Positions 8,139 to 29,437 of a stretch of 64,000 nucleotides of DNA are shown here, in pieces (the stretch's first letter is position 1; each line of letters starts with the position of its first letter). The translations under genes and the position numbers were made by a program. The stretch is from an uncultured Gammaproteobacteria bacterium. GTDB taxonomy: Bacteria > Patescibacteriota > Patescibacteriia > Buchananbacterales > UBA6539. The stretch spans positions 10,297-74,296 of the forward strand of contig CAZCCC010000001.1 in NCBI GenBank assembly GCA_964497245.1, in the 5' to 3' direction. The notes beneath the pieces are model-generated. The model was not told where the DNA came from and ran no database searches. It saw only the letters and a list, made by a program, of their open reading frames with translations.

Positions 8139-9986
8139 ATGTGTGGAATAAATGGTTTTAATTGGAAAAGTCAAGAATCAATTCAATTAATGAATAAATT
8201 GATTTCTCATCGTGGACCAAATGGTGGTGGAATTTTTTGCAATGATAATTTTTCTTTAGGCCACAGGCGTTTGGCAATTTTGGATCTTTCGGAAAGTGGA
8301 AAACAGCCAATGGAGTTTGAAGGTTTGAAGATTGTATATAATGGTGAAGTCTATAATTTCCAAGAAATCAGAAGAGAACTGGAAAAATTAGGATATACTT
8401 TTTACTCAAACACTGACACGGAAGTTGTTTTGAAAGCCTATCACTGCTGGAAGGAAAAATCCCTGCAAAAATTTAATGGTATATTTGCATATGCGATTTT
8501 AGATGAAAAAGGTAGGACTCTTTTTATGGCAAGAGACAGATTGGGTGTCAAGCCTTTATATTATTACCAAAAAGAAAATAGATTGATTTTTTCTTCGGAA
8601 ATTAAAGCCATATTAAGTCATTCAAATATAGATAAGACAATAGTTCCAGAAAGAATCAGTTTTATTTATCAAATGAACTGTCTTCCGGGAGAGTTGACAA
8701 TGTATAAAAATATTCATATGCTTCCTGCGGCAAATTGGGCTTTATACAAAGATGGTAGAATTGCAAAAAAAAGATACTGGGAGATTAATGATTTTGAAGA
8801 TATTAAAAGTAAGGAAGGAATAATTTTTAAAATAAAAGAAATTTTAAACGATTCAGTGAAGATAAATATGATTAGTGATGTGTCACTTGGAGTTTTTTTA
8901 TCCGGGGGATTTGATTCAAGCATTATCACGCTTTTAGCCGGTAAATACTCAAGATTGCCAGTTAAGACTTATTCTGTTGGTTTTGAAGTGGATAAAAATC
9001 AGGATGAAAAATTTAACGCGGATTTTTATTTGGCAAGAAAAACCTCTAAATTTTTTGGAACTGATCATCACGAATTATTTTTAAAAAAAGGCAAGGCTTT
9101 GGAATATGTATCAGAAAAAATGGCTGATAATTTGGAGTTGCCAAACGCTATGACAACAGCTATCCCAAGCTATTGGCTCTCGGAAATTGCAAAAAAAGAA
9201 GTTTCAGTCGTCTTGGGGGGGGACGGTGGAGATGAATTATTTGGTGGATATCCAAGATACAATTTATCTTTTATGTTTTCTCAGTGGCTTAAAATTCCTG
9301 CCTCAATAAGAAGGTTGGTGCCGACTAAGCTAATAGGAAATATGTTAGGAAAAAAAGATCTGCATGAACGGTTGAATTTATCAAGTGACGTTGAAAGATA
9401 TTGTACGTTAAAACTTCATCAAGGAAAAGATGTCAAAAAAGTCTTTAAAAACTGTTATAATTCAAATTTGACAATTGATTATCTTAATGAAAATTATTTT
9501 TCTAAAAAATTAACCGGCGATTTTGAAAAGCATTTTATGATAACCGATTCAATGACTTGGCTTACTGATCATTCATTATTAAGAACTGATAAAAGCACTA
9601 TGGCCTTTGGGATTGAACAGAGAGTTCCTATTTTAGACTACAGGCTTGTTGAACTTTCTGCCAAGATACCCACTAAATACAAATTGAATTTTAAAGATAA
9701 TAAAATTATATTTAAGGAAGCATTTGCCAAAGAGTTGCCTAGTCATTTATTTAATCAGCCAAAACGCGGCTGGCTTTCTCCGGCAGCGAAATGGCTTCGT
9801 GATGAACTAAAAGATTTTTCTTATGATGTTATAAATAAGAATTATACGCAGGGTTCTGAAGAGTTTATTGATTTTAAGGCTGCTAGGAAATTGCTTGATG
9901 ACCACATTGAAGGAAAGAAATATAATTTGCATTTAATTTGGATTTTAATTACTTGGCAGCTTTGGTATAAAAAATGCTGTTTATAA
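8139..9986 (+). CDS. asnB: Asparagine synthetase (glutamine-hydrolysing) family amidotransferase; in this context probably a uronic-acid amidotransferase (WbpS-like)
   Basis: 615 aa; N-terminal nucleophile MCGI, GHRRLAILDL, and PP-loop SGGFDSS. Confidence 0.8.
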   Translation: MCGINGFNWKSQESIQLMNKLISHRGPNGGGIFCNDNFSLGHRRLAILDLSESGKQPMEFEGLKIVYNGEVYNFQEIRRELEKLGYTFYSNTDTEVVLKAYHCWKEKSLQKFNGIFAYAILDEKGRTLFMARDRLGVKPLYYYQKENRLIFSSEIKAILSHSNIDKTIVPERISFIYQMNCLPGELTMYKNIHMLPAANWALYKDGRIAKKRYWEINDFEDIKSKEGIIFKIKEILNDSVKINMISDVSLGVFLSGGFDSSIITLLAGKYSRLPVKTYSVGFEVDKNQDEKFNADFYLARKTSKFFGTDHHELFLKKGKALEYVSEKMADNLELPNAMTTAIPSYWLSEIAKKEVSVVLGGDGGDELFGGYPRYNLSFMFSQWLKIPASIRRLVPTKLIGNMLGKKDLHERLNLSSDVERYCTLKLHQGKDVKKVFKNCYNSNLTIDYLNENYFSKKLTGDFEKHFMITDSMTWLTDHSLLRTDKSTMAFGIEQRVPILDYRLVELSAKIPTKYKLNFKDNKIIFKEAFAKELPSHLFNQPKRGWLSPAAKWLRDELKDFSYDVINKNYTQGSEEFIDFKAARKLLDDHIEGKKYNLHLIWILITWQLWYKKCCL

Positions 9987-11805: not shown

Positions 11806-12966
11806 ATGCTTTTATTTATTAAAAAAATTTTTGCAAGCAGCTTTTTGAAAACATTGATTTTAATTTTTTTACTTAAAGGCGTAGTGGTTTTTGCTGTATT
11901 TTTTGGGTTTCCCGATTTAGGCATTGATGGATTAAAAATTCCGCATGGCGGTGATAGCCGTGGTTATTATTCTTTCAGCCGTTATTTAATTAACGGAAAT
12001 TTAGGCGGTGGTTCTCTGCCAATTGGTTATCCTTTGGTTATTATCCCAGTTATAAAAATTTTTCCAAATGTCGATGCGGTGCAGCTTGATTTTTATTTTT
12101 CTTTATTTCATTCCTTGGTAGCCTTTACTATTGCTGCCGGCTTACTTTATAAATTCATCGAGATAATTTTTAAGAAAGAATTTTACGCAAAGACGGCCGC
12201 CTGGCTTTTTGTTTTTTTTCCTTATTTTTTTTATTTTTTGTCTGGGTTTTTTTTAAAGTCCATACCATATGCTATTGACTTTCAGCAATCGCGTACATTA
12301 CAGTTACTTTGGCTTCAGTCAGGCTCAGATTATCTTTCAACAGCTATTATCTTTGGTATTTTTTTGGCAATTTTATTTTGGAATAGATTTGGAAATAATC
12401 ATTTATTTTGGTTTGGGCTTGGTGTTGGTTTAATAGTAGTGATGCGACCGCAAAATTCGGTTTTACTAATATTAGGTTTAATTTTAATTTTATTAGCTAG
12501 AAAATGGCATTGGTTTTTTTGGTTTTTAATGGGAATTATTCCTTTTGTGGGCATACAATTGCTGATTAATTTTTTAACAGAGAGCCAGTTTTTTAGTTTT
12601 GGTTATGATGCATCAACTAATGATAATATAGCTAGTCTAGAAGAACATGGCGCTGTAATATTTTCGCCATGGAATACATTTAAAATAATTAGTTATTTGG
12701 ATCGATATGAGGTATTATGGCTTGGTGTTTTCATTTTATTATTTTTATCCCTATTATTTTTAATTGGTTTATATTGGATATATAATAAAAATAGGATTGT
12801 TTTTGTTTTATGTGGTTTAATTTTACCGGTTTATATTTACTCATTGACTTGGTTTGAGCCGGTTTACCGAAATCCGCGCTATTTTTTTCCGATAATTCCG
12901 TTGGTTTTCGTTATAATTTTTTCTTGCTATAATTATTTTTTAGAATTTTATGCTAAACAAAAATGA
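11806..12966 (+). CDS. Polytopic integral membrane protein (at least 10 predicted TM segments), possibly a glycan polymerase or GT-C-like
   Basis: 386 aa, very hydrophobic with repeated F/L/I-rich segments; located inside the glycan cluster. Confidence 0.45.
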   Translation: MLLFIKKIFASSFLKTLILIFLLKGVVVFAVFFGFPDLGIDGLKIPHGGDSRGYYSFSRYLINGNLGGGSLPIGYPLVIIPVIKIFPNVDAVQLDFYFSLFHSLVAFTIAAGLLYKFIEIIFKKEFYAKTAAWLFVFFPYFFYFLSGFFLKSIPYAIDFQQSRTLQLLWLQSGSDYLSTAIIFGIFLAILFWNRFGNNHLFWFGLGVGLIVVMRPQNSVLLILGLILILLARKWHWFFWFLMGIIPFVGIQLLINFLTESQFFSFGYDASTNDNIASLEEHGAVIFSPWNTFKIISYLDRYEVLWLGVFILLFLSLLFLIGLYWIYNKNRIVFVLCGLILPVYIYSLTWFEPVYRNPRYFFPIIPLVFVIIFSCYNYFLEFYAKQK

Positions 12967-14315: not shown

Positions 14316-14561
14316 ATGCCTGAAATAAATCCAAATGAAGTATATACTTCAAATGAAACCCAAGTGCTGCTAAAGGTTAGCTCAAGCACAATGAAGCGTC
14401 TTTTAAAAAAGGGATTAATTAGAGCCAATAAAGTTGGTGGGCAATATCGTATTTTAGGTAAAGAAATTTTACGTTTAATTTCGCCGGAATTGGAGCAAAA
14501 AGCAGTTGATGTTTATCAGGCAATAAAGAAAAACGCAGTTGATAAGATTAATAAGTGGTAA
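14316..14561 (+). CDS. Excisionase/MerR-like helix-turn-helix DNA-binding protein (HTH_17 type)
   Basis: 81 aa; VYTSNETQVLLKVSSSTMKRLLKKGLIRANKVGGQYRI matches the excisionase-family HTH pattern (ellgvs..tvyrlikkGelpa.kiGr.wri). Confidence 0.55.
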   Translation: MPEINPNEVYTSNETQVLLKVSSSTMKRLLKKGLIRANKVGGQYRILGKEILRLISPELEQKAVDVYQAIKKNAVDKINKW

Positions 14562-15331
14562 CTATGAAGGTAATATTTTATTGCCTTATTTTAATATTGG
14601 AGCGCCTTTTTCCAACAAGGGATATTGCGGTAATTTTATACCATCGGATTGACGACGACGGCAATTATTCAGTAAAACCCGAATTATTTGAAAAACAATT
14701 GAAACATCTTAAAAAACTTGACTATGTATCAATTTCTCCCGAAGATCTAAAAGGTTTTTTAGATGGCAAAATTAATTTGTCGAGAAGAAGCATTTTAATT
14801 ACTTTTGATGATGGTTTTAAGGATAATTACTCTATTGCTTACCCTTTGTTAAAAAAATATAATTTTACAGCAACCTTTTTTATTTCAGCCCGCCATATCG
14901 GAAAATTAAGCGATTATTCTGAAAAAATAAAAAATAAGGAAATGATGAGCTTCGCTGAATTGTCAGAATTAATTGAAAATGGTTTTACGGTTGCCAACCA
15001 TTTTTATTCCCACAGGAATTTAACCGAAATTTCTGATCAGGAAATTGAGTCTGAATTTAACCATGCATGTGAAATTTTAAGTAATATTGTAAATTCTGAA
15101 AATGATTTGAAATATGTAGCTTATCCGAGAAACCGAACCACGAGCAACGTTTTTGCCACTTTGAAAAAAGTTGGAGTAAAATTAGGTTTTGGTGGAAATC
15201 CTGCTTTAGTTAGTGGAATCGTCGATTATTTGAATATTCCGAGAATAGAAATATTCGGTAATAATTCAGTATTGAAATTCAGGGTTAAAATTTCTGGGCA
15301 TTATTACAGATTAATTAATTTATTTCGATAA
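14555..15331 (+). CDS. Polysaccharide deacetylase (NodB homology domain, CE4)
   Basis: 258 aa; ILITFDDGFKDNYSIAYPLLKKYNFTATFFI (TFDDG motif) and HFYSH. Confidence 0.7.
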   Translation: MVTMKVIFYCLILILERLFPTRDIAVILYHRIDDDGNYSVKPELFEKQLKHLKKLDYVSISPEDLKGFLDGKINLSRRSILITFDDGFKDNYSIAYPLLKKYNFTATFFISARHIGKLSDYSEKIKNKEMMSFAELSELIENGFTVANHFYSHRNLTEISDQEIESEFNHACEILSNIVNSENDLKYVAYPRNRTTSNVFATLKKVGVKLGFGGNPALVSGIVDYLNIPRIEIFGNNSVLKFRVKISGHYYRLINLFR

Positions 15332-15334
15332 GAT

Positions 15335-16099
15335 ATGGTGATTAAAAGGAATTTATTTCTTTTTAAAACTATCCGTTTTGTTTTGGAACCGTTGCCGGAA
15401 GAAATAGAAAAGCTTAAGAAAATATATTTAATGATAAACTGCTTATCCTATCAAGAATTATCTTTAGCCGGTTTTGAAAAAAGGCAAAAAAAAACCCCTT
15501 TGATTGATTTGACAAAAACACTACCTGAAATCTTTTTTGCCTTTCACGATACAACAAGAAATGAAATAAGAAGATCCGAAAAAAATTTTGATTTAAAGTT
15601 TGTTAATGATGATGGTAATTTTAAAGAAGCATATAAGCTTTATTGCCGGCATGAAACATCACAAAAGAGGATACCGGAAAGTAAAAACGAGTTTTCTGGT
15701 TGTAAGGTATTTTCGGCATATTTCAAGGATAAAATGATTTCCACCATTATATGTTTTACAGGTTCTAAATATTTGAGAGCAAAATCTATAAGTTCCTTGC
15801 GCATGGAGTCATTTGACAAAGAAATGCTGAGATTGATAAGTTTTTCCACCAGAAGATTGGTTTGGGAGATATGCAAATATGGTAAAGAAAATGATTATTT
15901 TGGTTTTGATTTGGGATCAATTAATTTAGTCGATTCAAATAAAGCAAGTATTGCTCAGTTTAAAAACTCTTTTGGTGGAAAAATTGTTGATGAATATTTA
16001 TACATTTATAAGTCAAAAATCTTTAAATTTTTTGAAAGAGTAGTTAAACTTAAAGTCTTAGCTTTAAAATTTTTATTAAAGAAAACTGATAATGAATAA
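15335..16099 (+). CDS. Hypothetical protein, possibly FemAB/Acetyltransf_6-like (GNAT fold) acyl/aminoacyl transferase
   Basis: 254 aa; C-terminal FKNSFGGKIV resembles the FemAB-family FK.kFGg motif. Weak. Confidence 0.3.
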   Translation: MVIKRNLFLFKTIRFVLEPLPEEIEKLKKIYLMINCLSYQELSLAGFEKRQKKTPLIDLTKTLPEIFFAFHDTTRNEIRRSEKNFDLKFVNDDGNFKEAYKLYCRHETSQKRIPESKNEFSGCKVFSAYFKDKMISTIICFTGSKYLRAKSISSLRMESFDKEMLRLISFSTRRLVWEICKYGKENDYFGFDLGSINLVDSNKASIAQFKNSFGGKIVDEYLYIYKSKIFKFFERVVKLKVLALKFLLKKTDNE

Positions 16100-17492
16100 T
16101 AATCTTAGAACAATTATTATTGTAGTTGAAGAAGGTTTTACTGCTCGTAGTCTTTTACGTTCAAATTTTTTGACAAAGATAAAGGAAAATTTTGAAAGAA
16201 TTGTTATTGTTGCTCCAAAAGCGAAACTCGATTATTATAATGAAAAATATTGTGACGATAGGATAATATTTGAACCGATGGATGAGGATAAAAATTCATT
16301 ATTTCAAAGAGCAATATTCAAAATTATAAAATACAGTATTCATTCTAATATAAATAAAATAAAACTTTTACGAACTTTATATAATAAAGATGGTAAAGTT
16401 AAATTTAACAAGGATTTTTTCTTTTTCCCTATTTTATTTTTATGTTGGTTCATGGGTCAATACCGTTGGTGGCGATTTTTTTTACGAATGATTTATTCAA
16501 CTACCCGTCTTGATGGAAGGTGTATTAAATTAATTGATAGGTATAAGCCAATGGTCGTGTTTGCTAATTATAGTGATATTAGTGTTAATAATTTTAATTT
16601 AAAATTGATTAGAGCATCTAAAAAAAGAAAAATAAAAACAGTTGGTAATATTTTTAGCTGGGATAATCTATTTAGTAAAGTTTTCATAACAGATTTTTCT
16701 GATTGTATTACTGTGCCGAACGGAATAGTTCGAGATGTAGCAGTTTTAATGGACGATGTCGATGCTAAAAAGATAATGGTAGTTGGTTTACCTCATTTCG
16801 ATGTTTATTTTAATAAGAATATAATAAAATCAAAGGAATATTTTTTTAGGGAAATTAATGCTGATATTAATAAGAAGTTAATTGTTTTTGCTATTGGTAT
16901 TAAAGATGCAATTAACGAAAATCATTTCTTGGATTTATTTAATAATCTAGCGAAAAGTTCTTTTTCTAATATACAATTCTATATTAGGCCATATCCCAAG
17001 GTTGGGCTTAAACAGAATATAGTTGATAAATTTAAAGGTAATGTTAATATTCTAATTGAAAATAGGCCAGCTAAAAATTGTGGAGTTTATTTTGAATTTT
17101 TTGATAATGATCCAGAGTTTTTAGCTAACTTATTATTACATTCAGATGTTTTAATTACTTATTATTCTACTATTATTATTGAATCATGCATTACTGACAC
17201 TCCAATAATAAATCTTAATTACTCCGGAGGATTGTCAAATAGCTACTATCATCAGATACAAAGATATTATTATTATGATCATATTAAACAAATTTTAGAT
17301 ACTGGTTGTGCTAAGTGGGTAAATAATGATAAAGAATTAGTTAATGTCTTGAAACAATATTTAGATAATCCATTGACAGACCGCAATGCTAGGAAAAAGA
17401 CAGTGATAGAACAGTTATCATATATTGATGGAAAATCAGCAGAAAGGTTATTTTTAGCTATTAGAAATACCATTAATAGTAAAAATGATTAG
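16092..17492 (+). CDS. Uncharacterized protein, paralog A of a tandem pair; possibly a distant TagF-like (CDP-glycerol glycerophosphotransferase, GT-B) relative
   Basis: 466 aa; shares with the next gene EGFTARSLLRSNFL, KTVGNIFSWDNLFSKVFIT, VVGLPHFDVYFN, YIRPYPK and LITYYSTIIIESCITDTPIINL (cf. TagF DYSS...D.PIIfy). Confidence 0.45.
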   Translation: MNNNLRTIIIVVEEGFTARSLLRSNFLTKIKENFERIVIVAPKAKLDYYNEKYCDDRIIFEPMDEDKNSLFQRAIFKIIKYSIHSNINKIKLLRTLYNKDGKVKFNKDFFFFPILFLCWFMGQYRWWRFFLRMIYSTTRLDGRCIKLIDRYKPMVVFANYSDISVNNFNLKLIRASKKRKIKTVGNIFSWDNLFSKVFITDFSDCITVPNGIVRDVAVLMDDVDAKKIMVVGLPHFDVYFNKNIIKSKEYFFREINADINKKLIVFAIGIKDAINENHFLDLFNNLAKSSFSNIQFYIRPYPKVGLKQNIVDKFKGNVNILIENRPAKNCGVYFEFFDNDPEFLANLLLHSDVLITYYSTIIIESCITDTPIINLNYSGGLSNSYYHQIQRYYYYDHIKQILDTGCAKWVNNDKELVNVLKQYLDNPLTDRNARKKTVIEQLSYIDGKSAERLFLAIRNTINSKND

Positions 17493-17494
17493 CT

Positions 17495-18889
17495 ATGATT
17501 GACAAAAATATTTTAATTATTATTGAAACTGGCTATGTTGCCCGCAGTCTTCTGCGTTCAAATTTTTTATTTAATATAAAAAGTGATTTTTCAAAAGTAA
17601 TTTTGGTTGTTCCAAGAGAAAAGGTTAATAGTTATAAAAAATTATATGGTTTTAATAATGTCATAATAGAATCAATAATTGATAGTTATCCTAGTATTTT
17701 TCAAAAAAAATTTAATATAATTTTAAAATATAGCATTCATGCAAAAGTGGCAAAATTAAAAATAATGAGGAAAATTTTCAAAGAGAGCGGGTTCAGGTTC
17801 AATATATGGATTCTTTATTTTCCACTAATATTTTTTTCTTATTTTTTAAGTCGATTTAAGCTTTGGCGTAAAATTTTAAGATTTATATATTCATTTTTTC
17901 CTGTCAATATTGATTGTATTAATCTTCTGAAAAAATATAATATTGACATTATTTATGCTAACTATACTAGCATAGGGGTAAGGGATTTTAATTTGAATAT
18001 ATTAAAAGCTGCAAAAAGTTTGGGGATCAAAACCGTAGGAAATATATTTAGTTGGGATAATTTATTTAGTAAAGTCTTTATAACAACACATACTGATTTT
18101 ATTACTGTCCCAAATCAACAGGTAGCCGAGGACGCTGTTAATATTGGTGATTTCAAAAGAGATTCGGTAAAAATTGTTGGCTTGCCTCATTTTGATTTTT
18201 ATTTTAATCACAAATTAATTCTCCCAAAGGATGATTTTTTTGATAAAATTGGTGCAAATCCAAAAAAAGATTTTTTCATTTTTGCTTTTGGGGCCGGTAA
18301 CCAAAGAGTTGATTATGAATATTTTTTAGACCTGCTTAATAAAATTTCAGAAAAATGTGGAGGAATTCAGTTTTATCTAAGGCCTTATCCAAAAAATTAT
18401 TACAATAAGAGTATTTTAAATAAATATTTTGGTAACAAAAATTTAATTTTTGAAAAAAGACCATTAGATAATTTAGAAAACCTTGGTAATAATTTTGAAT
18501 TTCCAGAAGAAGATAATCAGCTTCTTTTTAATTTACTTTATCATTCAAGGGGACTTATTTGTTTGACTTCTACACTTATGATCGAGGCTTGTTTGATGAA
18601 TACGCCGATAATTAATCTGCTGTATCTCGGGGATAAAAAGATAAATTATTATTATCGGCCGGAGAGACATTATGAATTAGACCATATAGTCAGAATTTTT
18701 AAAAGAAATTTTTCCATTAAAGTTAGGAATGATAACGAGCTAGTAAATGCCATTAATTCTTACCTTATGAATAAAGAGCTGCACCAAAAGGAAAGGAAAG
18801 AAACTGCGCTAGAACAAATGCATATTGTTAATGGTACCTCGGCAAGAGAATTAGCTGCTGTTCTTTCTAGTGTCGGGAGGGAAATATAA
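17495..18889 (+). CDS. Uncharacterized protein, paralog B of the tandem pair
   Basis: 464 aa; TGYVARSLLRSNFL, KTVGNIFSWDNLFSKVFIT (identical 19-mer), KIVGLPHFDFYFN, YLRPYPK. Confidence 0.45.
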   Translation: MIDKNILIIIETGYVARSLLRSNFLFNIKSDFSKVILVVPREKVNSYKKLYGFNNVIIESIIDSYPSIFQKKFNIILKYSIHAKVAKLKIMRKIFKESGFRFNIWILYFPLIFFSYFLSRFKLWRKILRFIYSFFPVNIDCINLLKKYNIDIIYANYTSIGVRDFNLNILKAAKSLGIKTVGNIFSWDNLFSKVFITTHTDFITVPNQQVAEDAVNIGDFKRDSVKIVGLPHFDFYFNHKLILPKDDFFDKIGANPKKDFFIFAFGAGNQRVDYEYFLDLLNKISEKCGGIQFYLRPYPKNYYNKSILNKYFGNKNLIFEKRPLDNLENLGNNFEFPEEDNQLLFNLLYHSRGLICLTSTLMIEACLMNTPIINLLYLGDKKINYYYRPERHYELDHIVRIFKRNFSIKVRNDNELVNAINSYLMNKELHQKERKETALEQMHIVNGTSARELAAVLSSVGREI

Positions 18890-18890
18890 T

Positions 18891-19847
18891 ATGAGACTTT
18901 TAATTGTCATGTATCATCATATAGATTCAGAAAAAAAATATAAATCAGGGATTTATCCGATTTCGATAGAAAGATTTACCAAGCAGCTTGATATTATTAG
19001 GAAAAAATATACTTTTATAAATGAAGATAAATTGGTTAAAATAATAGGGGGATCAGACAAATTGCCAGATATAAATTTTTGTTTTTTAACTTTTGATGAC
19101 AGTCTCCGCTGTCAATATGATAATGCCATACCTGTGCTGAAAGAAAGAAGAATTCCCGCAACTTTTTATATAAATAGTAAACCTTATCTTGAGAATAGTG
19201 CTTGCAGTGTCCATTTGATACATTGGCTTTTGACATTTCTCGATCCAAAGAAATTTTTGGAAGAAATTTATACCAATTATAATAAAATAACTGGTAATAT
19301 ATTAATCTTATCTGAAGCGGAAGAGAAAGAAGCATCAAAATTTAAGAGGTATGATAATAAAGACATCTCAAAATTAAAGTTTATTTTGAATAACTATTTA
19401 GATGTAGGAATATCGGAAATAATTATTGGTGGTATTTTCAAGAAATATTCAAAGATTGGAATGCTAGATTTTTGTAAAAAATTATATATGTCGGTGGGCA
19501 ATTTAAAAAATTTATTATCTGATAGTTTATTTAGTCTTGGAATGCATACAAATAGCCACATAAATATCAGTAAATTAAGCCAAGAATCTTTGAATAATGA
19601 ATATCAATTGAATTACAATTTTTTATGTAAAATTGGAGCAAATGTTCAAGGGATAGCATATCCTTACGGAACCTTTGGAGATAAAAAAGATTTTGATTCT
19701 ATCTTATCGGTTAATAAAAATATTGGGATTTTGTATGGGTTAACGACACTACGAAATATTAACATAAATTTAGATAGTCCATTTTATTTAAGTAGGTGTG
19801 ATACTAATGACATTAAGGGAGGAAAAAACCCAATAATAAGCATTTAA
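18891..19847 (+). CDS. Polysaccharide deacetylase-like protein (NodB/CE4 family)
   Basis: 318 aa from the ATG at 18891 (GGGAGG Shine-Dalgarno at 18875-18880; the ORF-track start at 18870 overlaps the upstream gene). CFLTFDDSLRCQYDNAIPVLKERRIPATFYI and LGMHTNSH. Confidence 0.6.
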   Translation: MRLLIVMYHHIDSEKKYKSGIYPISIERFTKQLDIIRKKYTFINEDKLVKIIGGSDKLPDINFCFLTFDDSLRCQYDNAIPVLKERRIPATFYINSKPYLENSACSVHLIHWLLTFLDPKKFLEEIYTNYNKITGNILILSEAEEKEASKFKRYDNKDISKLKFILNNYLDVGISEIIIGGIFKKYSKIGMLDFCKKLYMSVGNLKNLLSDSLFSLGMHTNSHINISKLSQESLNNEYQLNYNFLCKIGANVQGIAYPYGTFGDKKDFDSILSVNKNIGILYGLTTLRNININLDSPFYLSRCDTNDIKGGKNPIISI

Positions 19848-19852
19848 AGTAT

Positions 19853-20938
19853 ATGATTAAAAGTACAGAAGACATGTTAAATATATTAAAAAAAGGGATT
19901 TTTTTTATCGCTGAAATTGGTAAAAATTTTATTCAAACATCAGATGAAAAAACAATCAATGAATATTTAGAGAACGCTAAGAAATTAATCAAGGCGGCTA
20001 AAGAAAGCGGAGCTGATGCGGTAAAATTTCAAACTCATAATTTAGATGATGAATTTTTGAAAATTAATGTTATTTCGCCGCATTTTTCATCAGTTGATCG
20101 TTATAATTGGATAAAGAGGAATCAGCAGGCTACTCCTTTGGAGTTTTGGCGCGAACTTAAGGATTATTCTGAACAGCTAGACATTTTATTTTTTTCAACG
20201 CCGATGAGCCGCGGAGCAGCAGAAATTTTAAGTAAAATAGATGTTCCTGTTTGGAAAATTGGCTCCGGAGATATATTAGATTTTGTTATGTTGGATTACG
20301 TGGCGCAAACAGGTAAGCCGGTCATAATTTCTACCGGTATGAGCAGCTTGGAAGAGATTGATAAAGCAGTTAATTTTTTAAGGGAAAGAACGGATAAAAT
20401 AATCATTATGCACTGTGTTTCCAAATATCCTTGTCCGCCGGAAGAATTGAATTTAAAAACGATTAGATTTTTAGAACAAAGATATAATTTACCGGTTGGT
20501 TTCTCCAGTCATTCAATTAATGACAAAGATGCAGTCGCCGCCGCCATTGATTTAGGTGCTAAAGTAATTGAAAAACATTTTTCATTAAGCCGTGACCTAT
20601 GGGGCCCAGACCATAAGGTTTCTTTAACGCCCGATGAATTTAAATCAATGGTTAATATGGCTTATAGCGGCAAAAAATCGAATTTTACTGACTTAGGTTC
20701 AGAATATAAAATATTAAATAATGATGAAATGGTGTTCCGGCCGATATTTCGTAAATCTTTGGTTGCCGGTAAAAATATTAAAGCCGGAGAAACGATTTCT
20801 AAAGAAAAGATTTATTCGATGAGGCCGCATGGCTATATTAATGGTCTACCGTCCGAAGAGTATGAAAATGTTATAGGGAAAAAGGCGTTGAAGAATTTAA
20901 ATAAATATGATCCAATAACTATTAGTATAATAGAATAA
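19853..20938 (+). CDS. neuB: N-acetylneuraminate (nonulosonic acid) synthase, NeuB family with C-terminal SAF domain
   Basis: 361 aa; FIAEIGKNF...AAKESGADAVKFQTH (NeuB TIM-barrel domain), C-terminal SAF/antifreeze-like segment VAGKNIKAGETISKEKIYSMRP. Confidence 0.8.
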   Translation: MIKSTEDMLNILKKGIFFIAEIGKNFIQTSDEKTINEYLENAKKLIKAAKESGADAVKFQTHNLDDEFLKINVISPHFSSVDRYNWIKRNQQATPLEFWRELKDYSEQLDILFFSTPMSRGAAEILSKIDVPVWKIGSGDILDFVMLDYVAQTGKPVIISTGMSSLEEIDKAVNFLRERTDKIIIMHCVSKYPCPPEELNLKTIRFLEQRYNLPVGFSSHSINDKDAVAAAIDLGAKVIEKHFSLSRDLWGPDHKVSLTPDEFKSMVNMAYSGKKSNFTDLGSEYKILNNDEMVFRPIFRKSLVAGKNIKAGETISKEKIYSMRPHGYINGLPSEEYENVIGKKALKNLNKYDPITISIIE

Positions 20939-20943
20939 AAAAT

Positions 20944-22107
20944 ATGGAAAAACGTAAAATTTGTTTTGTGATTACAAGTCAAATTCATTATGCTAGAAAC
21001 AAGTTGATTATTCAGGAATTAAAAAAACGTGATGATGTAGAATTGCAGTTGGTAATTGCCGGTTCCGCGATATTAAAACAGTATGGCAACGTTGAAAAAC
21101 TCTTAAAAGATGACGGAATTGAATTTCAGAGCAAGGCAACCATAATCGTTGAAGGCGGTAATCCTGTAGCCATGGCTAAAACAGCCGGGTTAGGCTTGAT
21201 TGAATTTGCTTCAATCTTTGAAAATTTAAATCCCGATATCGTATTGCTTAGAGGTGATCGCTATGAAGTTCTTTCGGCTGCGATTGCCGCCGCTTATATG
21301 AATATAACTTTGGCTCATATAGAGGGTGGTGATATCAGCGGTAGCATTGATGAGAGTGTAAGACATGCAATTACTAAATTGTCCAATATACATTTTACAA
21401 CCAATGCCGAATCTAAAGGCCGCGTTATACAAATGGGGGAAGATGAAAAATATGTCTTTGATTTTGGCAGCCCTGATGTTGAATTTGCCGCTATTAATAA
21501 TTTTTCAGTCACGAATGAAGAAATCAATCAAATTGGAGTAGGCATGAAAGAGTTTAATATTAATAATAAATTCTTGATTGTAATACAACATCCGGTTACT
21601 AGCGAAATAAATGAAAATGGAAAAAATATTGAAGAGACGCTAAAAGCGATTTCTGATTTTAAAATGCCGACTCTTTGGTTTTGGCCCAATATTGATGCCG
21701 GCAATGATGAAGTCTCCAATGCCATTAGAAAATTCAGGGAGAATACAGATATTGACAGCTATACCCATTTTATAAAGTATCTTGCCCCGGATAAATTTTT
21801 ATCATTACTTAGAAAAACCTCATGTTTGATCGGCAATTCATCGGCTGGAATTAAAGAATCTTCTTATTTTGGCACTCCTGTTGTAAATATTGGCAGCCGG
21901 CAGAACGGAAGGCTAAAGGGCAATAACTTGTTAGATGTCCAATATGATTCTGAACAGATAAAGAAAGCAATCAAGAAGCAATTAGATAATGGTTATTATC
22001 CTCAAGATAATATATATTTTAAAGGTAATTGCAGCAAACAAATTTCAGATACTTTGGCAAAAATCAAACTGTATACCCAGAAAAAATTTAATGATAAAAT
22101 TAAGTAG
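20944..22107 (+). CDS. neuC: UDP-N-acetylglucosamine 2-epimerase (hydrolysing), NeuC type
   Basis: 387 aa; LLRGDRYEVLSAAIAAAYMNITLAHIEGGDISGSIDESVRHAITKLSNIHFTT is the Epimerase_2 family core; position between neuB and neuA. Confidence 0.75.
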   Translation: MEKRKICFVITSQIHYARNKLIIQELKKRDDVELQLVIAGSAILKQYGNVEKLLKDDGIEFQSKATIIVEGGNPVAMAKTAGLGLIEFASIFENLNPDIVLLRGDRYEVLSAAIAAAYMNITLAHIEGGDISGSIDESVRHAITKLSNIHFTTNAESKGRVIQMGEDEKYVFDFGSPDVEFAAINNFSVTNEEINQIGVGMKEFNINNKFLIVIQHPVTSEINENGKNIEETLKAISDFKMPTLWFWPNIDAGNDEVSNAIRKFRENTDIDSYTHFIKYLAPDKFLSLLRKTSCLIGNSSAGIKESSYFGTPVVNIGSRQNGRLKGNNLLDVQYDSEQIKKAIKKQLDNGYYPQDNIYFKGNCSKQISDTLAKIKLYTQKKFNDKIK

Positions 22108-22113
22108 CGTTTT

Positions 22114-22839
22114 ATGAAAAAAAGATTAAATATTTTAGGCATAATTCCGGCCCGCGGTGGATCCAAGGGGATACCTAAGAAAAATATAAAAATTTTAGGT
22201 GATAAGCCGTTGATTTATTATACGATTAAAAGCGCAAAAAGAAGCGTTTATATAACTGACCTGATTGTGTCTACTGACGACTTGGAGATCGCAAAAATAG
22301 CTGAATCCTGCGGCGCTAATGTTCCTTTTATTCGGCCGAAGGAATTGGCTTTGAATGAAACTCCAATGCTTCCTGTTTTAAGGCATGCGGTTGATTTTAT
22401 GGAAAAAAACAAAAATATTATTTTTGATTATATAGTAATCCTGCAACCGACATCACCTTTTAGACTGCCGGAAGATATAGATAAAACAATAGAAGTAATT
22501 ATTGAAAAAGGCGCCGATAGTGCTGTCAGTCTGGTGGAAGTGGAAAGCCAGTTTCATCCAATGAAAATGAAAAAGTTCGAGGAGCAGAGGGTATTGTCTT
22601 ATACTATTGATGAGCCGGAAGGAATAAATCGTCAGGATTTGCCAAAGGTATATAGGCGAAGCAGTGCAGTTTATGTTCAAAAACGAGATTTGATCGTTAA
22701 AAAGAATCAGTTATATGGTGATTATATTGTCGGACATATTGTGCCGGCAGAAAGATATATTGATATTGATAATGAATTTGATTGGTTAAAGGCAGAATAT
22801 ATGTTAAAAAAATTAAAAGATAGAGGATATAATTATTAA
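22114..22839 (+). CDS. neuA: N-acylneuraminate cytidylyltransferase (CMP-sialic acid synthetase)
   Basis: 241 aa; LGIIPARGGSKGIPKKNIKILGDKPLIYYTI (cf. AIIPARSGSKGLPRKN), CTP_transf_3 family. Confidence 0.8.
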   Translation: MKKRLNILGIIPARGGSKGIPKKNIKILGDKPLIYYTIKSAKRSVYITDLIVSTDDLEIAKIAESCGANVPFIRPKELALNETPMLPVLRHAVDFMEKNKNIIFDYIVILQPTSPFRLPEDIDKTIEVIIEKGADSAVSLVEVESQFHPMKMKKFEEQRVLSYTIDEPEGINRQDLPKVYRRSSAVYVQKRDLIVKKNQLYGDYIVGHIVPAERYIDIDNEFDWLKAEYMLKKLKDRGYNY

Positions 22840-24445: not shown

Positions 24446-25708
24446 ATGGTAAAAATCTTATATAATAAAATATTAAGTATAATAAGTCGTGTTGAGAAAA
24501 TTGTAAAAGTTGATTTAATATATTATTTAAAAGGTAGTTTTTGGATGAATATGGAACAAGGAGTCTCAACTCTTACCGCTATTATTTTGTCGATTGTATT
24601 TGCTAATTTGCTTTCTAAGGAAACTTATGGGTCATATTCATATATTTTAACAATTGCCAATCTTTTGGCATTTACTACACTGACCAGTATGAATGAAGCA
24701 GTAACAAGATCAGTGGCAAAAGGAAATAATGATTCAGTAATTTCAGCTTTATATACCAAAATTAGATTTGGTTTTTTTGGCAGTATAATAAGTTTAGCGA
24801 TAGCGCTTTATTATTTTATAAACAATTCTTTAGTTTTGGCGATTTGTTTTTTATTTGTTTCATTATTTATTCCTTTTTGGCCTTCGCTCAGTATTTACTC
24901 TGCTTTTTTTAATGGGAAAAGAAATTTTGGACTCTCATCAATTATTGGTGCTGCTAGAAATATTATTACTTCCTTTTTTTTAGTTATGGTAATATTTTTT
25001 ACAAGAAATATTTTTTTGATTATTTTAACATATTTTTTATCATTTTTATTATTTGATTTTTTTTATTTAAAAAAAGTTATTAATAAATTTAAGTTGACAA
25101 ATATTCGTAATCCAGAAACAATTTCTTATGGAAAATATTTAAGTTTCGTAAGGATAATTGGTCTTATTAATAGTAATATTGATAAAATATTAATTTGGAA
25201 TCTGCTTGGTCCGGTTCAAGTGGCAGTTTATTCAATTGCACTGGCGCCAGTTGATAAAATTAAGGGTACAATTGGTAATATCAAATCATTAGCTTTCCCA
25301 AAATTCAGCTTAGCTCCACAGAATCAAATGCAGAAAACGTTAATGGGAAAAATGTTAAAGCTTTTTTTTATTTTAATTCCTGTTGTAGCGACTTATATTA
25401 TATTCATACCTTTTCTTTTTAAAATTTTTTACCCTAAATATTTAGATTCAATTATTTATTCCCAAATACTTTCACTAACTATTTTAGCTACGCCTGAACA
25501 GCTTTTTACCGTTTATTTCAAGGCGCATAAGATGAAAAAAGAAATAGTAATTATGAGCTCGGTTGTACCCTTGATAAATATACTAATAATGGTATTTGCC
25601 GGCGTATTTTTTGGTTTAATTGGTTTGGTAATTGGCAGAGTGCTAGGATTTATTTCTTATTTTCCAGTTGCTTTTTATTTGTTTAAATTTCAGAAATATA
25701 AAGATTAA
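24446..25708 (+). CDS. Oligosaccharide flippase (Wzx-like / polysaccharide biosynthesis protein, MOP superfamily)
   Basis: 420 aa, about 12 hydrophobic segments throughout, no soluble domain; the true start may be an internal Met (e.g. MNMEQG). Confidence 0.55.
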   Translation: MVKILYNKILSIISRVEKIVKVDLIYYLKGSFWMNMEQGVSTLTAIILSIVFANLLSKETYGSYSYILTIANLLAFTTLTSMNEAVTRSVAKGNNDSVISALYTKIRFGFFGSIISLAIALYYFINNSLVLAICFLFVSLFIPFWPSLSIYSAFFNGKRNFGLSSIIGAARNIITSFFLVMVIFFTRNIFLIILTYFLSFLLFDFFYLKKVINKFKLTNIRNPETISYGKYLSFVRIIGLINSNIDKILIWNLLGPVQVAVYSIALAPVDKIKGTIGNIKSLAFPKFSLAPQNQMQKTLMGKMLKLFFILIPVVATYIIFIPFLFKIFYPKYLDSIIYSQILSLTILATPEQLFTVYFKAHKMKKEIVIMSSVVPLINILIMVFAGVFFGLIGLVIGRVLGFISYFPVAFYLFKFQKYKD

Positions 25709-25718
25709 TTATTATAAA

Positions 25719-26639
25719 ATGTTTAAAAAAATAGGACCAGATTTTTTAATAACCGGGCTTGAAAGAAGTGGCACTCACTGGGTTGCCGGTTTACTGAATG
25801 CGCATCCGGAGATTTCTTGTTTTCCGGCCGATTATTTTGATAAAGGTTTTGGTGAATATAATAGAGAAATTATTGGGGAAGTCCATTTATTTAATACTTT
25901 GGCAAGTCTTGAATTGAATACCGAAGATAAGCATACCCGGCCCATATCTGGATATTTAACCAAGCATAATTTGATTTTTGCCGATTTGGCAGCGTTAGAG
26001 GGCAAGGTGCCTAAGGAAGAATTATATAATATGTTTATAAAAAGGTATAATGAGATTTGTGAAGAGAACCGCTATGGCAAAAAAATGGTTGGTGAATCAA
26101 CTCCAGCCTATGTTTTTCACTTAGATTTTATTGATTCATTTTATCCAAATATAAAAAAGCTTTGTATAATCAGAGATCCGAAGGATAAAATAGTATCTTG
26201 GCATTTTAGCAAACTAAGAAAAGGTCAGAAGACCGAGGTTGTTATTACCGATGAATTTATCAAAGAATATTGCGAGAAAACGATTAAAAAAGAATATGAA
26301 AGCCTGCTTGATTATAAAGGCAATATTTACTGTTTTACTTATGAGAGTTTGGCTGAAAATCAAAACGGGGTTTTATGTGATATCCTTTCTTATTTAGATG
26401 TTGCCATTAATGCTGATATTATTAGTCATATGATTAAAGAAGGTTCATTTAAGGAAATGACAGCTAAGGGGAATATTACTGGTGGAAGAGATAATGGACA
26501 AGAAGAGCTACAGAGTCCTTATCGTAAGGGTGTAGTTGGTGACTGGGTAAATCATATGACTAAAAAACAGGCTGAATTGGTGGATGCTATTGTTGGTGAG
26601 GTGAGAAAAATGACTTTTAATAAATATAAAATTTACTAA
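25719..26639 (+). CDS. PAPS-dependent sulfotransferase
   Basis: 306 aa from the ATG at 25719 (the ORF-track start at 25668 overlaps the flippase gene). 5'-PSB loop ITGLERSGTHW (cf. PKSGTTW); 3'-PB motif IIRDPKDKIVSWHFS (cf. RNPKDxxVS). Confidence 0.65.
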   Translation: MFKKIGPDFLITGLERSGTHWVAGLLNAHPEISCFPADYFDKGFGEYNREIIGEVHLFNTLASLELNTEDKHTRPISGYLTKHNLIFADLAALEGKVPKEELYNMFIKRYNEICEENRYGKKMVGESTPAYVFHLDFIDSFYPNIKKLCIIRDPKDKIVSWHFSKLRKGQKTEVVITDEFIKEYCEKTIKKEYESLLDYKGNIYCFTYESLAENQNGVLCDILSYLDVAINADIISHMIKEGSFKEMTAKGNITGGRDNGQEELQSPYRKGVVGDWVNHMTKKQAELVDAIVGEVRKMTFNKYKIY

Positions 26640-26647
26640 GACTACTT

Positions 26648-29437
26648 ATGTTCAAGAAAAATATTAAGATTATTGTTACCTTGGGTCCGTCAACTAAAAC
26701 CATATCAGATTTAAGAAAAATTAAAGATAGGGGCGTAAGTTTTGTTCGTATTAATATGTCGCATTCCAGTATTGATGATCTTAAATATTTTATTAATTTG
26801 GCAAAAACTGTTGATATCCCATTTATTATTGACACTGAAGGTTCTCAAATCAGGACAGGTGATCTAATTGAAAGCAGTATTAATCTGAATGAGAATGACG
26901 AGATAAAGATATATAAAGAGCAAATAGTTGGTGATATCCACAAAATATCAATTAAGCCAAGTTATGTAATAGACCAACTTAAAATTGGTGATATATTGTA
27001 TGTAGATTTTAATGCTTTAATTTTAGAAATTTCAGATATTTCAACTATTTCTGTAGGCTATATTACGGCCAAGGCTATCAATAAAGGCAGTCTGGGACGA
27101 AATAAAGGCGTAGCAATAGATTCATCTGATAATACTAAGTTTGATTTGCCAGTTCTGTCGGAAAAAGATTATCAATCAATCAAGGTAGGTTTAGAAGAGG
27201 GTATTAGTCATATTGCGGCATCATTTATGAGATCTGAGCAGTTTGTTAAAGATGTTAAGATGGCTACGAAAGGCAAGATGAAAATTATTTCAAAAATTGA
27301 GTGCCTTGATGCACTAAATAATTTAGATGAGATTATTAAAGAGTCTGATTTTTTGTTAATTGACAGAGGAGATTTAAGTAAAGAAATTCCAATAGAAAAA
27401 ATTCCATTTTTACAAAAAATAATTCTAAGCAAATCTCGTAATTATAATAAGGAAACTTTTATTGCAACTAATTTATTAGAGACCATGGTTGAAAAGAGTA
27501 ATCCAACCAGAGCGGAAGTTAATGATGTAATTAATGCTATTTTAGATGGTGCTTCTGGTTTAACCCTTTCATCTGAAACAGCAATAGGTAAATATCCAAT
27601 AGCCTGTATTAATATGCTAAATAAATTGATCAAGCAAACAACCTTATTTAATGATATAACTTATCAAAAATCCGGTGATCGGTTAGCTAAAAAGTTATTT
27701 AAGTCAAATTATTTTTTAAGTACAGATTCATCATCTTCTCTAATTTCTCCTCACGGCGGCACCTTAATAAATAGGATTTCTGATGGATCGTTTAGTAAGC
27801 AATATTTAGATTCTTTAAAAAAAATTGTAGTAAGTCAAAATATTTCAATGGATATTGAGCAGATAGCAGTTGGTACTTTTAGCCCCCTGGAAGGTTTTAT
27901 GATAAAACGTGATTTTAATAGTGTTCTCAATAAAATGAGACTTGTAAACGGAGCAGTATGGACAATTCCCATAGTTTTGGATGTCTCAAAAGAACATGCT
28001 GACAATATATCTTTAGGTGAAGATATTATGCTAATTGGTGATGGCGGCTTGATAGCATTAATCAATGTAGAGGATAAATACTCATTTAATAAAAAAGAAG
28101 TTTCTTTAAAACTTTATGGTACTACTAGTAATAAACATCCCGGTGTTTTGTGGGTGAATAGCCTAGATCAAATATTACTGGGAGGGAAAATTACTCTTCT
28201 CAAAAGAAGAGAATCAGAGTTTCAGGAATATATTCTGACTCCCAGACAAACAAGAAGGTTGTTTGAAGAAAAAAATTGGTCTAGGGTTGTGGGATTTCAT
28301 ACTAGAAATGTTATTCACCGCAGTCATGAATTTATTCAAATGAAAGCTTTGGAGGTTGAAAATTGTGATGGGCTTTTTGTTCATCCAGTAATTGGCAAAA
28401 AGAAGCCTGGTGATTTTTATGCCAAATACATTATTGAAAGTTATAAGCTTATGGTTAAAAATTTTTACCCAGCCGATAAGGTATTCTTTGCCACTTTGCC
28501 GACTTATTCTAGATATGCCGGTCCCAGAGAAGCAGTTTTTACCGCTTTGTGCCGCAAGAACTTCGGTTGCAGCCATTTTATTGTTGGTCGTGACCACACT
28601 GGAGTTGGTAATTTTTACAATCCTACGGCGTCTCATGATATTTTTGATAAATTTCCTGATTTAGGCATGAAAATAATTAAATTTAATAAGATATTTTACT
28701 CAAAAAAATATGACGGTTATATTCATGAGACTGAGGATTCTGATCATTTGGAAGAAGATAAGCTTCATATAAGCGGCACAGAAGCTAGAAAAATGTTTGA
28801 GGAAGGGGATATTCCGCCATGCTGGTTTATGCGTCCGGAAATATCACAATTTATTTCAAATGCAATTTGCAACAAAGAAGAAGTTTTTATTAAAAAAGAG
28901 TCAGTTGAAAAAGGAATAGTTCTTTGGTTTACTGGTTTAAGTGGCTCAGGAAAAACCACGATTGCCGGTGAATTAGAAAATCGATTAAAAACTCTTAGAA
29001 AGAAAGTTGTGATAATTGATGGCGATACCGTAAGGTCTACAATTAATAAAAATCTTGGTTTTTCCCGAGAAGACATAAAAGAAAATAATTTAATAATTGC
29101 AAAATTAGCTGAGGAAGCAGCTTTTAAAAATGATTTTGTGGTTGTACCAATTATTTCTCCTTACCAAGAAGATAGAAACATGGCTCGCTCATTAATTGGC
29201 TCTCGATTTTTTGAAATTTTTATAAATTGTTCTATTGATAAATGTATTAAAAGAGATCCCAAGGGTTTTTATAAGAAAGCTTTAGAAGGAAAAATCAATA
29301 ATTTTATAGGGCTTAGTAAAAGTAATCCGTATGAGATTCCAATAAATCCGGATTTAGAAATAAAAACTGATATTCATAGTCTTGATGAAAATATTCTTTT
29401 AATTTTAGATTTTTTAAAATCTAAGGCCTTATTGTAA
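26648..29437 (+). CDS. Tri-domain protein: pyruvate-kinase-like catalytic (A+B) domains, ATP sulfurylase, and APS kinase (PAPS synthase with an N-terminal PK module)
   Basis: 929 aa. Residues 1-340 align along their whole length with pyruvate kinase: KIIVTLGP, VRINMSHSS, IIDTEGSQIRTG, IISKIECLDAL...LLIDRGDLSKEIP, ATNLLETMVEKSNPTRAEVNDVINAILDGASGLTLSSETAIGKYP. Residues about 360-750 are ATP sulfurylase: LISPHGGTLINRI, GFHTRNVIHRSHEF, VGRDHTGVG. Residues about 760-929 are APS kinase: LWFTGLSGSGKTTIA, CIKRDPKGFYKKALEGKINNFIGLSKSNPYE. Confidence 0.8.
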   Translation: MFKKNIKIIVTLGPSTKTISDLRKIKDRGVSFVRINMSHSSIDDLKYFINLAKTVDIPFIIDTEGSQIRTGDLIESSINLNENDEIKIYKEQIVGDIHKISIKPSYVIDQLKIGDILYVDFNALILEISDISTISVGYITAKAINKGSLGRNKGVAIDSSDNTKFDLPVLSEKDYQSIKVGLEEGISHIAASFMRSEQFVKDVKMATKGKMKIISKIECLDALNNLDEIIKESDFLLIDRGDLSKEIPIEKIPFLQKIILSKSRNYNKETFIATNLLETMVEKSNPTRAEVNDVINAILDGASGLTLSSETAIGKYPIACINMLNKLIKQTTLFNDITYQKSGDRLAKKLFKSNYFLSTDSSSSLISPHGGTLINRISDGSFSKQYLDSLKKIVVSQNISMDIEQIAVGTFSPLEGFMIKRDFNSVLNKMRLVNGAVWTIPIVLDVSKEHADNISLGEDIMLIGDGGLIALINVEDKYSFNKKEVSLKLYGTTSNKHPGVLWVNSLDQILLGGKITLLKRRESEFQEYILTPRQTRRLFEEKNWSRVVGFHTRNVIHRSHEFIQMKALEVENCDGLFVHPVIGKKKPGDFYAKYIIESYKLMVKNFYPADKVFFATLPTYSRYAGPREAVFTALCRKNFGCSHFIVGRDHTGVGNFYNPTASHDIFDKFPDLGMKIIKFNKIFYSKKYDGYIHETEDSDHLEEDKLHISGTEARKMFEEGDIPPCWFMRPEISQFISNAICNKEEVFIKKESVEKGIVLWFTGLSGSGKTTIAGELENRLKTLRKKVVIIDGDTVRSTINKNLGFSREDIKENNLIIAKLAEEAAFKNDFVVVPIISPYQEDRNMARSLIGSRFFEIFINCSIDKCIKRDPKGFYKKALEGKINNFIGLSKSNPYEIPINPDLEIKTDIHSLDENILLILDFLKSKALL

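Follow-up and report, generated by a model that had tools for sequence, protein, structure and literature searches.

A tandem pair of TagF/TagB-like GT-B proteins from Patescibacteria with a predicted role in nonulosonic acid transfer

Two adjacent open reading frames (ORFs), A and B, are found within a glycan cluster on a 64,000-nucleotide stretch of DNA, here termed the window, from an uncultured bacterium of the Patescibacteriota that carries a Gammaproteobacteria label in its record (assembly GCA_964497245.1, contig CAZCCC010000001.1, positions 10,297 to 74,296 of the forward strand). Judged by sequence, they encode GT-B proteins at the edge of the PF04464 (TagF/TagB-like) superfamily. The two proteins are probably transferases of nonulosonic acids activated with cytidine monophosphate (CMP), built on a TagF-type scaffold, and a probability of about 0.6 is given to this assignment. 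It draws on profile similarity to known transferases, on the conserved residues of the family and on the genes that surround its members.

Relationship to the TagF/TagB superfamily

Residues 201-457 of protein A match the Pfam family PF04464 (Glyphos_transf), which comprises the CDP-glycerol:poly(glycerophosphate) glycerophosphotransferases (TagF/TagB), and their score of 52.2 bits exceeds the gathering threshold of 22.1 bits. Protein B has no Pfam match, even at E ≤ 10, and of the pair only A is placed in PF04464 directly. B is matched by the family profile with an E value of 1.6e-124, and 57 of 61 subfamily members match PF04464 (E ≤ 1e-3). An undescribed family had been proposed in a sequence-only reading of this DNA. 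This does not stand, as nearly all members match PF04464 and relatives carry the NCBI name 'CDP-glycerol glycerophosphotransferase family protein'; source names, where given, are either this or 'hypothetical protein'. A and B belong to a subfamily inside a described superfamily, and it is only the subfamily that is uncharacterised and unstudied.

Single-sequence phmmer searches of A and B against PDB sequences gave nothing useful. The family profile recovered TarL (8VA1) from the same sequences with an E value of 0.0012. An alignment of 155 family domains was also compared by hhalign with four TagF-like proteins from plasmid records, i.e. TarL, TarF and two 'CDP-glycerol glycerophosphotransferase family' proteins. 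The probability was 98.7 for the C-domain only (A residues 204-458), and the alignment through the intermediate sequence P0192 is also confined to the C-domain. Two Rossmann-like domains and an interdomain cleft, which constitute the GT-B fold, are present. Model matches to the known bacterial sialyltransferase families (GT38, GT42, GT52 and GT80) were not obtained.

The closest curated relative, by profile, is NF046086, the BFO_1060 family of glycosyltransferases, which is matched by 60 of the 61 members (best E 4.9e-23). A itself aligns with profile positions 40-364 of 365 and scores 44.1 bits. The NF046086 cutoff is 200 bits, and because the scores are far below it, A and B are not members of this family from Tannerella forsythia.

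BFO_1060, Tanf_01245 (pseudaminic acid, Pse) and TFUB4_00887 (legionaminic acid, Leg) are TagB-like Pse/Leg transferases of T. forsythia (PMC5420450). In the knock-outs the terminal nonulosonic acid is lost and the CMP-sugar pool remains (PMC5420450). Few transferases are known for bacterial sialic-acid-like sugars (PMC5420450). Like A and B, the T. forsythia enzymes are TagB-like GT-B proteins of ∼445-465 amino acids encoded beside CMP-nonulosonic acid biosynthesis genes, and the reaction predicted for A and B is also the same, transfer of a CMP-activated nine-carbon sugar acid onto a glycan (PMC5420450). They differ in having a reported HP histidine where A and B have Tyr, a comparison made by profile and published description. 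In addition, T. forsythia belongs to the Bacteroidota and not the Patescibacteria, and genes of the A/B type are tandem or fused. No protein annotated as 'BFO_1060 family' was present among the plasmid TagF-like matches. The activity predicted here is already known from one distant relative, and what is described is a divergent, phylum-wide subfamily.

Conserved residues and the two essential histidines

In TagF, TagB and TarL, two histidines are invariant and essential (PMC10901376; PMC11666461). The N-domain histidine is the catalytic base and forms part of a W-H-G motif (TagF H444, TarL H300), and the C-domain histidine, in an HP motif, touches the donor phosphate (TagF H584, TarL H433) (PMC10901376; PMC11666461).

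Protein A displays an R-P-Y-P-K motif (16986..17000, + strand; residues 299-303) that places Tyr301 at the position of the HP histidine. Tyr301 of A and the equivalent Tyr of B align with the His of 'KMHPF' in TarL, both by hmmsearch against the 8va1 sequence and by hhalign. The replacement of His by Tyr, which had been proposed from the sequence alone, is therefore borne out. However, the residue had been called the catalytic histidine, and this part has to be amended: the HP histidine contacts phosphate (H584/H433), whereas the catalytic base is H444/H300. In the 155 family domains the HP column has 83 H, 35 P, 20 Y and 8 Q, and H and Y alternate even among close B-type orthologues. Since this column varies, the HP histidine is dispensable in the family.

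The N-domain base histidine is without a conserved counterpart, as the highest share of His in any column of the 155 aligned domains is 26%; a WH dipeptide is not found there in A or B. A known family with all its catalytic residues kept had been named as the finding that would count against a new kind of enzyme. PF04464 is indeed matched, yet neither TagF/TarL histidine is conserved.

The most conserved positions of the family are a W-D pair, with W190 in 154 and D191 in all 155 domains. The pair is situated at the end of an N-domain strand, immediately before the region that can be aligned with TarL, and in TarL the counterpart region is preceded by a strand that ends in W-H. W-D may stand in place of the W-H of TagF/TarL, to judge from this position. 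Further invariant or near-invariant residues are G232, D237, R299, P302, S359-T360, D/E364, P371, H397, R434 and G447.

An acidic base combined with (H)P and S-S/T motifs is the pattern of GT80 and GT52 enzymes. A and B have an analogous layout: the acidic candidate base belongs to the N-domain, and the C-domain supplies (H)P together with S-S/T as a phosphate-binding pair. The GT-B sialyl- and polysialyltransferases (GT38, GT52, GT80; SiaD, PDB 5WC6) also share the GT-B fold, and a CMP-sialic-acid-type donor is predicted for A and B. The portion of PMC5420450 that cites Freiberger 2007 gives the GT-B sialyltransferase pattern as an acidic N-domain base together with a C-domain pair of (H)P and S-S/T.

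The N-domain of A also carries an aromatic and basic helical insertion (16377..16511, + strand; approximately residues 96-140). Its 45 residues include 15 aromatic, 8 K/R and 2 D/E, and the model places helices at 107-121 and 125-136. No classical transmembrane segment was found in the insertion (maximum Kyte-Doolittle value, KD19, 1.2-1.5). TagF and TarL, likewise GT-B enzymes, associate with the membrane (PMC10901376). Composition and model suggest that the insertion is a monotopic membrane-association element, as in TagF/TarL.

An old duplication with both copies maintained

ORF A (16092..17492, + strand; 466 amino acids, ATG to TAG) is an A-type member of this Patescibacteria subfamily of TagF/TagB-like GT-B enzymes and would be CMP-nonulosonic acid transferase 1. 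ORF B (17495..18889, + strand; 464 amino acids, ATG to TAA) is its B-type paralogue and the predicted transferase 2. The two are separated by 2 nt, exactly at the coordinates first read for an adjacent duplicated pair. By BLASTP they are 42% identical over 452 amino acids (E 2e-122), and the overall nucleotide identity is 57%.

Five shared blocks had been listed from the sequence, and four are present in both proteins. These are ARSLLRSNFL (A18, B16), KTVGNIFSWDNLFSKVFIT (A182, B179), VGLPHFD.YFN and Y.RPYPK. The second is part of a longer identical run that comprises 20 amino acids rather than the 19 first counted, IKTVGNIFSWDNLFSKVFIT (A, 16632..16691; B, 18026-18085; + strand), and holds the family-invariant S-W-D-N with the candidate catalytic acid. 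The fifth block, given as YYST...D.PIIN, is complete in A only. A has YYSTIIIESCITDTPIINL and B has LTSTLMIEACLMNTPIINL (LTST......NTPIIN), so that ST and TPIIN are common to both, and 'YYST' and the Asp are confined to A.

The DNA of the 20-amino-acid block differs between A and B at 9 of 60 nt. Every one of these differences is synonymous, which points to maintenance of the block by purifying selection. Recent gene conversion as the source of the identity is ruled out by the same nine differences.

Both proteins span the full family profile and retain all of its invariant and near-invariant residues, and neither looks like a pseudogene. The positions at which B deviates are few, in the C-terminal tail and elsewhere, and are conserved in ∼87-93% of the family; the tail deviations are common to A-type and B-type relatives. 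Full profile coverage and the retained core residues rule out B as a degenerate copy. A lost copy had been put forward as a possible objection to the pair, and both copies prove to be intact.

A neighbour-joining tree places A with the relative P0002 and the N-terminal half of the fusion protein P0011 (bootstrap 76), and B with the C-terminal half of P0011 (bootstrap 79). A, B, P0002 and both P0011 halves form one clade (bootstrap 100). Because A and B group with separate halves of P0011, the A-type/B-type split predates the divergence of these genomes. The duplication is old and both copies have been maintained, as had been surmised from the sequence.

P0011 is a 924-amino-acid fusion of an A-type to a B-type protein with almost no linker, and its gene shows the same synteny of helix-turn-helix (HTH), NodB and Fem-like genes as the window. 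P0002, the A-type gene of a second relative, stands alone between a Fem-like gene and NodB-NeuB. The B-type orthologue P0033 directly follows NeuC-NeuA and comes from the same two metagenomes as P0002. The contigs concerned, L001 (3′ end) and L097 (5′ end) of metagenomes ERZ27293400 and JGI 3300004210, both break off within NeuC. If joined, they would read NodB / Fem-like / A-type / NodB / NeuB / NeuC / NeuA / B-type. On the assumption that the contigs are contiguous, this is consistent with P0002 and P0033 belonging to a single operon whose B-type gene has shifted to the far side of neuBCA.

The pair in the window is tandem. Two to four copies are found in 46 of 80 related loci, and in 25 they are directly adjacent. 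Seven of the top 150 representatives (P0011-15, P0021 and P0108; 600-1100 amino acids) contain two profile stretches, and P0011-15 read as two full copies per chain. The halves belong to distant clades in P0012 and P0013 and are sister sequences in P0014 and P0015. Because tandem arrangement and fusion recur, the paralogues are expected to work together. A fusion of this kind is encoded in locus L094 at 2616-5390, and P0016 (795 amino acids) has an unrelated N-terminal domain of ∼340 residues.

Association with nonulosonic acid biosynthesis genes

The pair forms part of a same-strand run of overlapping or abutting ORFs with the order HTH / NodB / 254-amino-acid Fem-like / A / B / NodB / NeuB / NeuC / NeuA. 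From the Fem-like gene to NeuA, adjacent genes overlap or are separated by no more than 6 nt. The neuB, neuC and neuA genes begin 964 nt past the end of B, after one intervening NodB gene. They encode a NeuB-family nonulosonic acid synthase (19853..20938, + strand; PF03102, 1.3e-71, with a SAF domain; best NCBIfam model NeuB_NnaB, below cutoff), a hydrolysing UDP-GlcNAc 2-epimerase, NeuC (20944..22107, + strand; TIGR03568, 372.6 bits against a cutoff of 235.9), and a NeuA-type CMP-nonulosonic acid synthetase (22114..22839, + strand; PF02348, 8.3e-23; best NCBIfam match a cytidylyltransferase model, below cutoff). The NeuA-type protein is the sole cytidylyltransferase detected in the window. 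Pfam thus confirms that the pair is flanked by two NodB deacetylases and lies upstream of neuB/neuC/neuA. Pfam scans revealed no TagD-, TarI- or TarJ-type gene in the window, and the window ORFs that were scanned matched no Pfam sialyltransferase family.

Related loci were collected in a scan of one genome per species, which gave 109 confirmed loci, of which 80 were kept. A NeuA or NeuB homologue is present within 10 kb in 51 of the 80; among the 47 loci that extend over 15 kb or more, the number is 34. The median distance to the nearest is 970 bp; it is ≤500 bp in 20 of the 51, and the strand is the same in 40. A NeuA-type cytidylyltransferase is adjacent in 47 of 80 loci. TagF-like genes of the control plasmids adjoin TarI/TarJ. 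A part for the pair in attaching the neuBCA product had been suggested from gene position in the window, and the comparison of loci supports it.

In L007 (9387-11522), and also in L004, a short NeuB (287 amino acids, without the SAF domain), a CTP_transf_3 protein and a haloacid dehalogenase (HAD) phosphatase adjoin the relatives. This is a ketodeoxynonulosonic acid (KDN)-type or phosphate-dependent pathway, not NeuC/NeuB/NeuA. Because the pathway differs, members of the family probably do not all use the same donor sugar.

Proposed function and alternatives

In the mechanism proposed, the C-terminal Rossmann domain would be the CMP/CDP-binding module common to TagF and TarL, and its conservation would follow from CMP being the leaving group in both chemistries. 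The acceptor/base half would have been remodelled, with W-D for W-H. The donor is most likely a CMP-activated nonulosonic sugar from the co-transcribed NeuC-NeuB-NeuA, and a CDP-polyol is disfavoured. CMP would be released as the sugar is transferred to a lipid-linked repeat unit on the cytoplasmic side of the membrane; export of the unit by Wzx and its polymerisation by Wzy would follow. The invariant Asp of S-W-D-N may act as general base, as in GT-B sialyltransferases, and R299, Y/H301, S359-T360 and E364 may hold the phosphate and ribose of CMP. The two paralogues probably account for two added residues, which would differ in acceptor position or linkage, or in the modification of the donor they come from. 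A and B would act as a functional pair, which in some relatives is one fused polypeptide. The sequence-only reading had left open a polyol-phosphate or a sugar transferase of GT-B type; the GT-B fold holds and sugar transfer is favoured, but the polyol-phosphate option is not.

Several points weigh against CMP-nonulosonic acid transfer. Donor and acceptor are deduced solely from context and distant homology, and no subfamily member has been assayed. The NF046086 score is far below the cutoff of that family. The correspondence of W-D with the W-H-G of TagF has near-zero confidence in N-domain hhalign, where W-H falls opposite a helix; local, greedy and global modes and N-domain sub-alignments were run against the four plasmid TagF-like sequences, and only the C-domain is reliable. 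No NeuA or NeuB is present in the available flank of 29 of the 80 loci, so that other donors may serve some members. A shared large surface-glycan island could explain part of the co-location; a matched control is ruled out by the centring of the loci on the family gene. TarI/TarJ were sought by tblastn in 87 related loci, with none found but one marginal 56-amino-acid match, and tagD was not searched there.

A different possibility is that the pair or the fusion is a processive polymerase that forms a nonulosonic acid homopolymer or alternating polymer similar to polysialic acid. The tandem and fused two-module proteins recall two-domain capsule polymerases, and TagF-like enzymes are often polymerases (PMC10901376; PMC5974469). 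The NodB deacetylases have PgaB and IcaB as their best models, though well below cutoffs, and these are polymer-acting deacetylases. On the other hand, the cluster has a complete Wzx/Wzy pathway and many other glycosyltransferases, which point to a heteropolymeric repeat unit. TagF-like polymerases have an extra N-terminal domain (PMC10901376) that A and B are without, and the window showed neither an ABC exporter nor genes of the KpsC/KpsS type. Bcs3 (PDB 8A0C) and the Cps family (PMC5974469) consist of a TagF-like phosphotransferase joined to unrelated glycosyltransferase domains and serve ABC-transporter-dependent group 2 capsules; A and B are two copies of one module in a Wzx/Wzy cluster. 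A processive polymerase is considered unlikely.

A and B might also be genuine TagF/TagB-type phosphotransferases that transfer a glycerol-phosphate, ribitol-phosphate or other phosphate-linked unit from a CDP-activated donor. The usual database name of the relatives implies such an activity. Both histidines that are essential in TagF, TagB and TarL (PMC10901376) are, however, missing as conserved residues. The N-domains of TagF/TarL/TarF/TagB (PDB 3L7I, 8VA1) are not alignable with those of A and B, which have the invariant S-W-D-N rather than the W-H-G histidine. The HP histidine is variable, and CDP-polyol synthesis genes were not found nearby (no TagD/TarI/TarJ in the window and, apart from the marginal match, no TarI/TarJ in the 87 loci), whereas NeuA-type genes are frequent neighbours. 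The TarF, TarB and TarL models match only 6 to 9 of the 61 members, compared with 60 for BFO_1060. A phosphotransferase of the TagF/TagB type is thus rather improbable. It is very improbable that one copy is a dead scaffold or regulatory partner, since all core residues are kept in both and the tail deviations of B are shared by A-type and B-type relatives, or that the proteins are not transferases at all but, for example, GT-B-fold sugar-nucleotide epimerase- or hydrolase-like, since their profile similarity is to the TagF/BFO_1060 transferases and not to epimerases, a bona fide NeuC epimerase is already next door, and the membrane-association insertion fits a lipid-linked acceptor.

CMP-nonulosonic acid transfer by A and B can be extended to a broader but speculative hypothesis. 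The subfamily might represent an unrecognised Patescibacteria-wide class of nonulosonic acid transferases, in which the His base of the TagF scaffold has changed to Asp and the HP motif has been relaxed. Its members would be obligate two-module heterodimers or fusions and, together with the NodB and Fem-like proteins, would build an N-aminoacylated coat similar to di- or polysialic acid. The whole of this is doubtful. If it holds, many ultra-small episymbiotic bacteria show sialic-acid-type sugars to their hosts.

Distribution and significance

An exhaustive search with the family profile detected 12121 representatives at E ≤ 1e-3, of which 2369 reached E ≤ 1e-30; most have ∼450 amino acids. 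Almost all of the 80 kept loci are from Patescibacteria/candidate phyla radiation (CPR) metagenome-assembled genomes, namely Parcubacteria-group lineages and 'Saccharibacteria'-labelled bins, and a handful are labelled Gammaproteobacteria or Bdellovibrionales. No relatives were found by tblastn of A against plasmid and phage collections. The subfamily is almost entirely specific to Patescibacteria. A literature search on Patescibacteria and nonulosonic acid found no paper, and a broader search found nothing on the subfamily.

Should nonulosonic acid transfer be correct, a widespread annotation ('CDP-glycerol glycerophosphotransferase' or hypothetical, in thousands of sequence clusters) would be corrected and more enzymes would become available for glyco-engineering. 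Nonulosonic acid envelopes would also appear to be common in Patescibacteria, mostly uncultured organisms whose surface chemistry and attachment to hosts are little understood. The family would provide a natural experiment in which a GT-B scaffold with CMP as leaving group tolerates loss of both 'essential' TagF/TarL histidines. This loss, the probable misannotation and the prospect of sialic-acid-like glycans in many CPR bacteria are what is noteworthy; current understanding is not overturned.

Other genes of the cluster

The conserved block is headed by a small HTH gene of the excisionase/HTH_17-like type (14316..14561, + strand; 81 amino acids). Its product matches TIGR01764 and a MamR-like model, the latter with 45 bits, below cutoff, and its 3′ end overlaps the next gene. 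The protein is 77% identical in the syntenic loci L001-L003 and is also present in L094. It may be the operon regulator.

The first NodB-type polysaccharide deacetylase (14555..15331, + strand; PF01522, 8.7e-23) is syntenic in L001 and L094. The second (18870..19847, + strand; PF01522, 3.5e-13) overlaps the end of B by 20 nt. Between the first deacetylase and A is a gene for a single-domain protein of 254 amino acids with the fold of Fem-like aminoacyl-tRNA-dependent transferases (15335..16099, + strand); its stop codon falls inside A, with an overlap of 8 nt. This protein has no match in Pfam or NCBIfam. Its profile recovers an aminoacyl-tRNA-dependent peptide synthase (9wqw, 1.3e-5) and FemX (6snr), and the best Foldseek matches of its AlphaFold2 model (predicted local distance difference test, pLDDT, 93.6) are Sbb17/Sba18, MprF and FemX. 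In L001-3 and L094 the Fem-like gene and a NodB deacetylase gene are conserved together immediately upstream of the A-type gene; L046, L068, L072 and L080 have the Fem-like gene as well. The combination suggests that an amino sugar or nonulosonic acid is first de-N-acetylated and then N-aminoacylated.

The entire glycan cluster spans ∼45 kb. It contains several GT4 and GT2 glycosyltransferases, an AsnB-like amidotransferase, methyltransferases and rml genes. Export and assembly are represented by Wzx, a Wzy_C/TPR protein and a Bac_transf initiating transferase (phosphoglycosyltransferase). The asparagine-synthase-like amidotransferase has 615 amino acids (8139-9986, + strand), and a UDP-sugar dehydrogenase is nearby (941-2191). 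The glycan may therefore contain amidated uronic acids.

Sulfation genes of the cluster are a sulfotransferase, a fusion for synthesis of 3′-phosphoadenosine 5′-phosphosulfate (PAPS) and CysQ. The fusion is unusual: a 929-amino-acid protein (26648-29437, + strand) in which a pyruvate-kinase (PK) barrel is joined to PUA_2, ATP-sulfurylase and adenosine 5′-phosphosulfate (APS)-kinase domains. This PK-PAPS synthase is flanked by the sulfotransferase (25668-26639) and the CysQ-like phosphatase (29449-30252), and the group implies a sulfated glycan.

Two proteins inside the cluster have no Pfam or NCBIfam match, a 386-amino-acid polytopic membrane protein (11806-12966, + strand) and a 699-amino-acid protein (45177-47276, − strand). 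Two PMT_2 (GT-C-like) proteins are encoded at 47368 and 54261.

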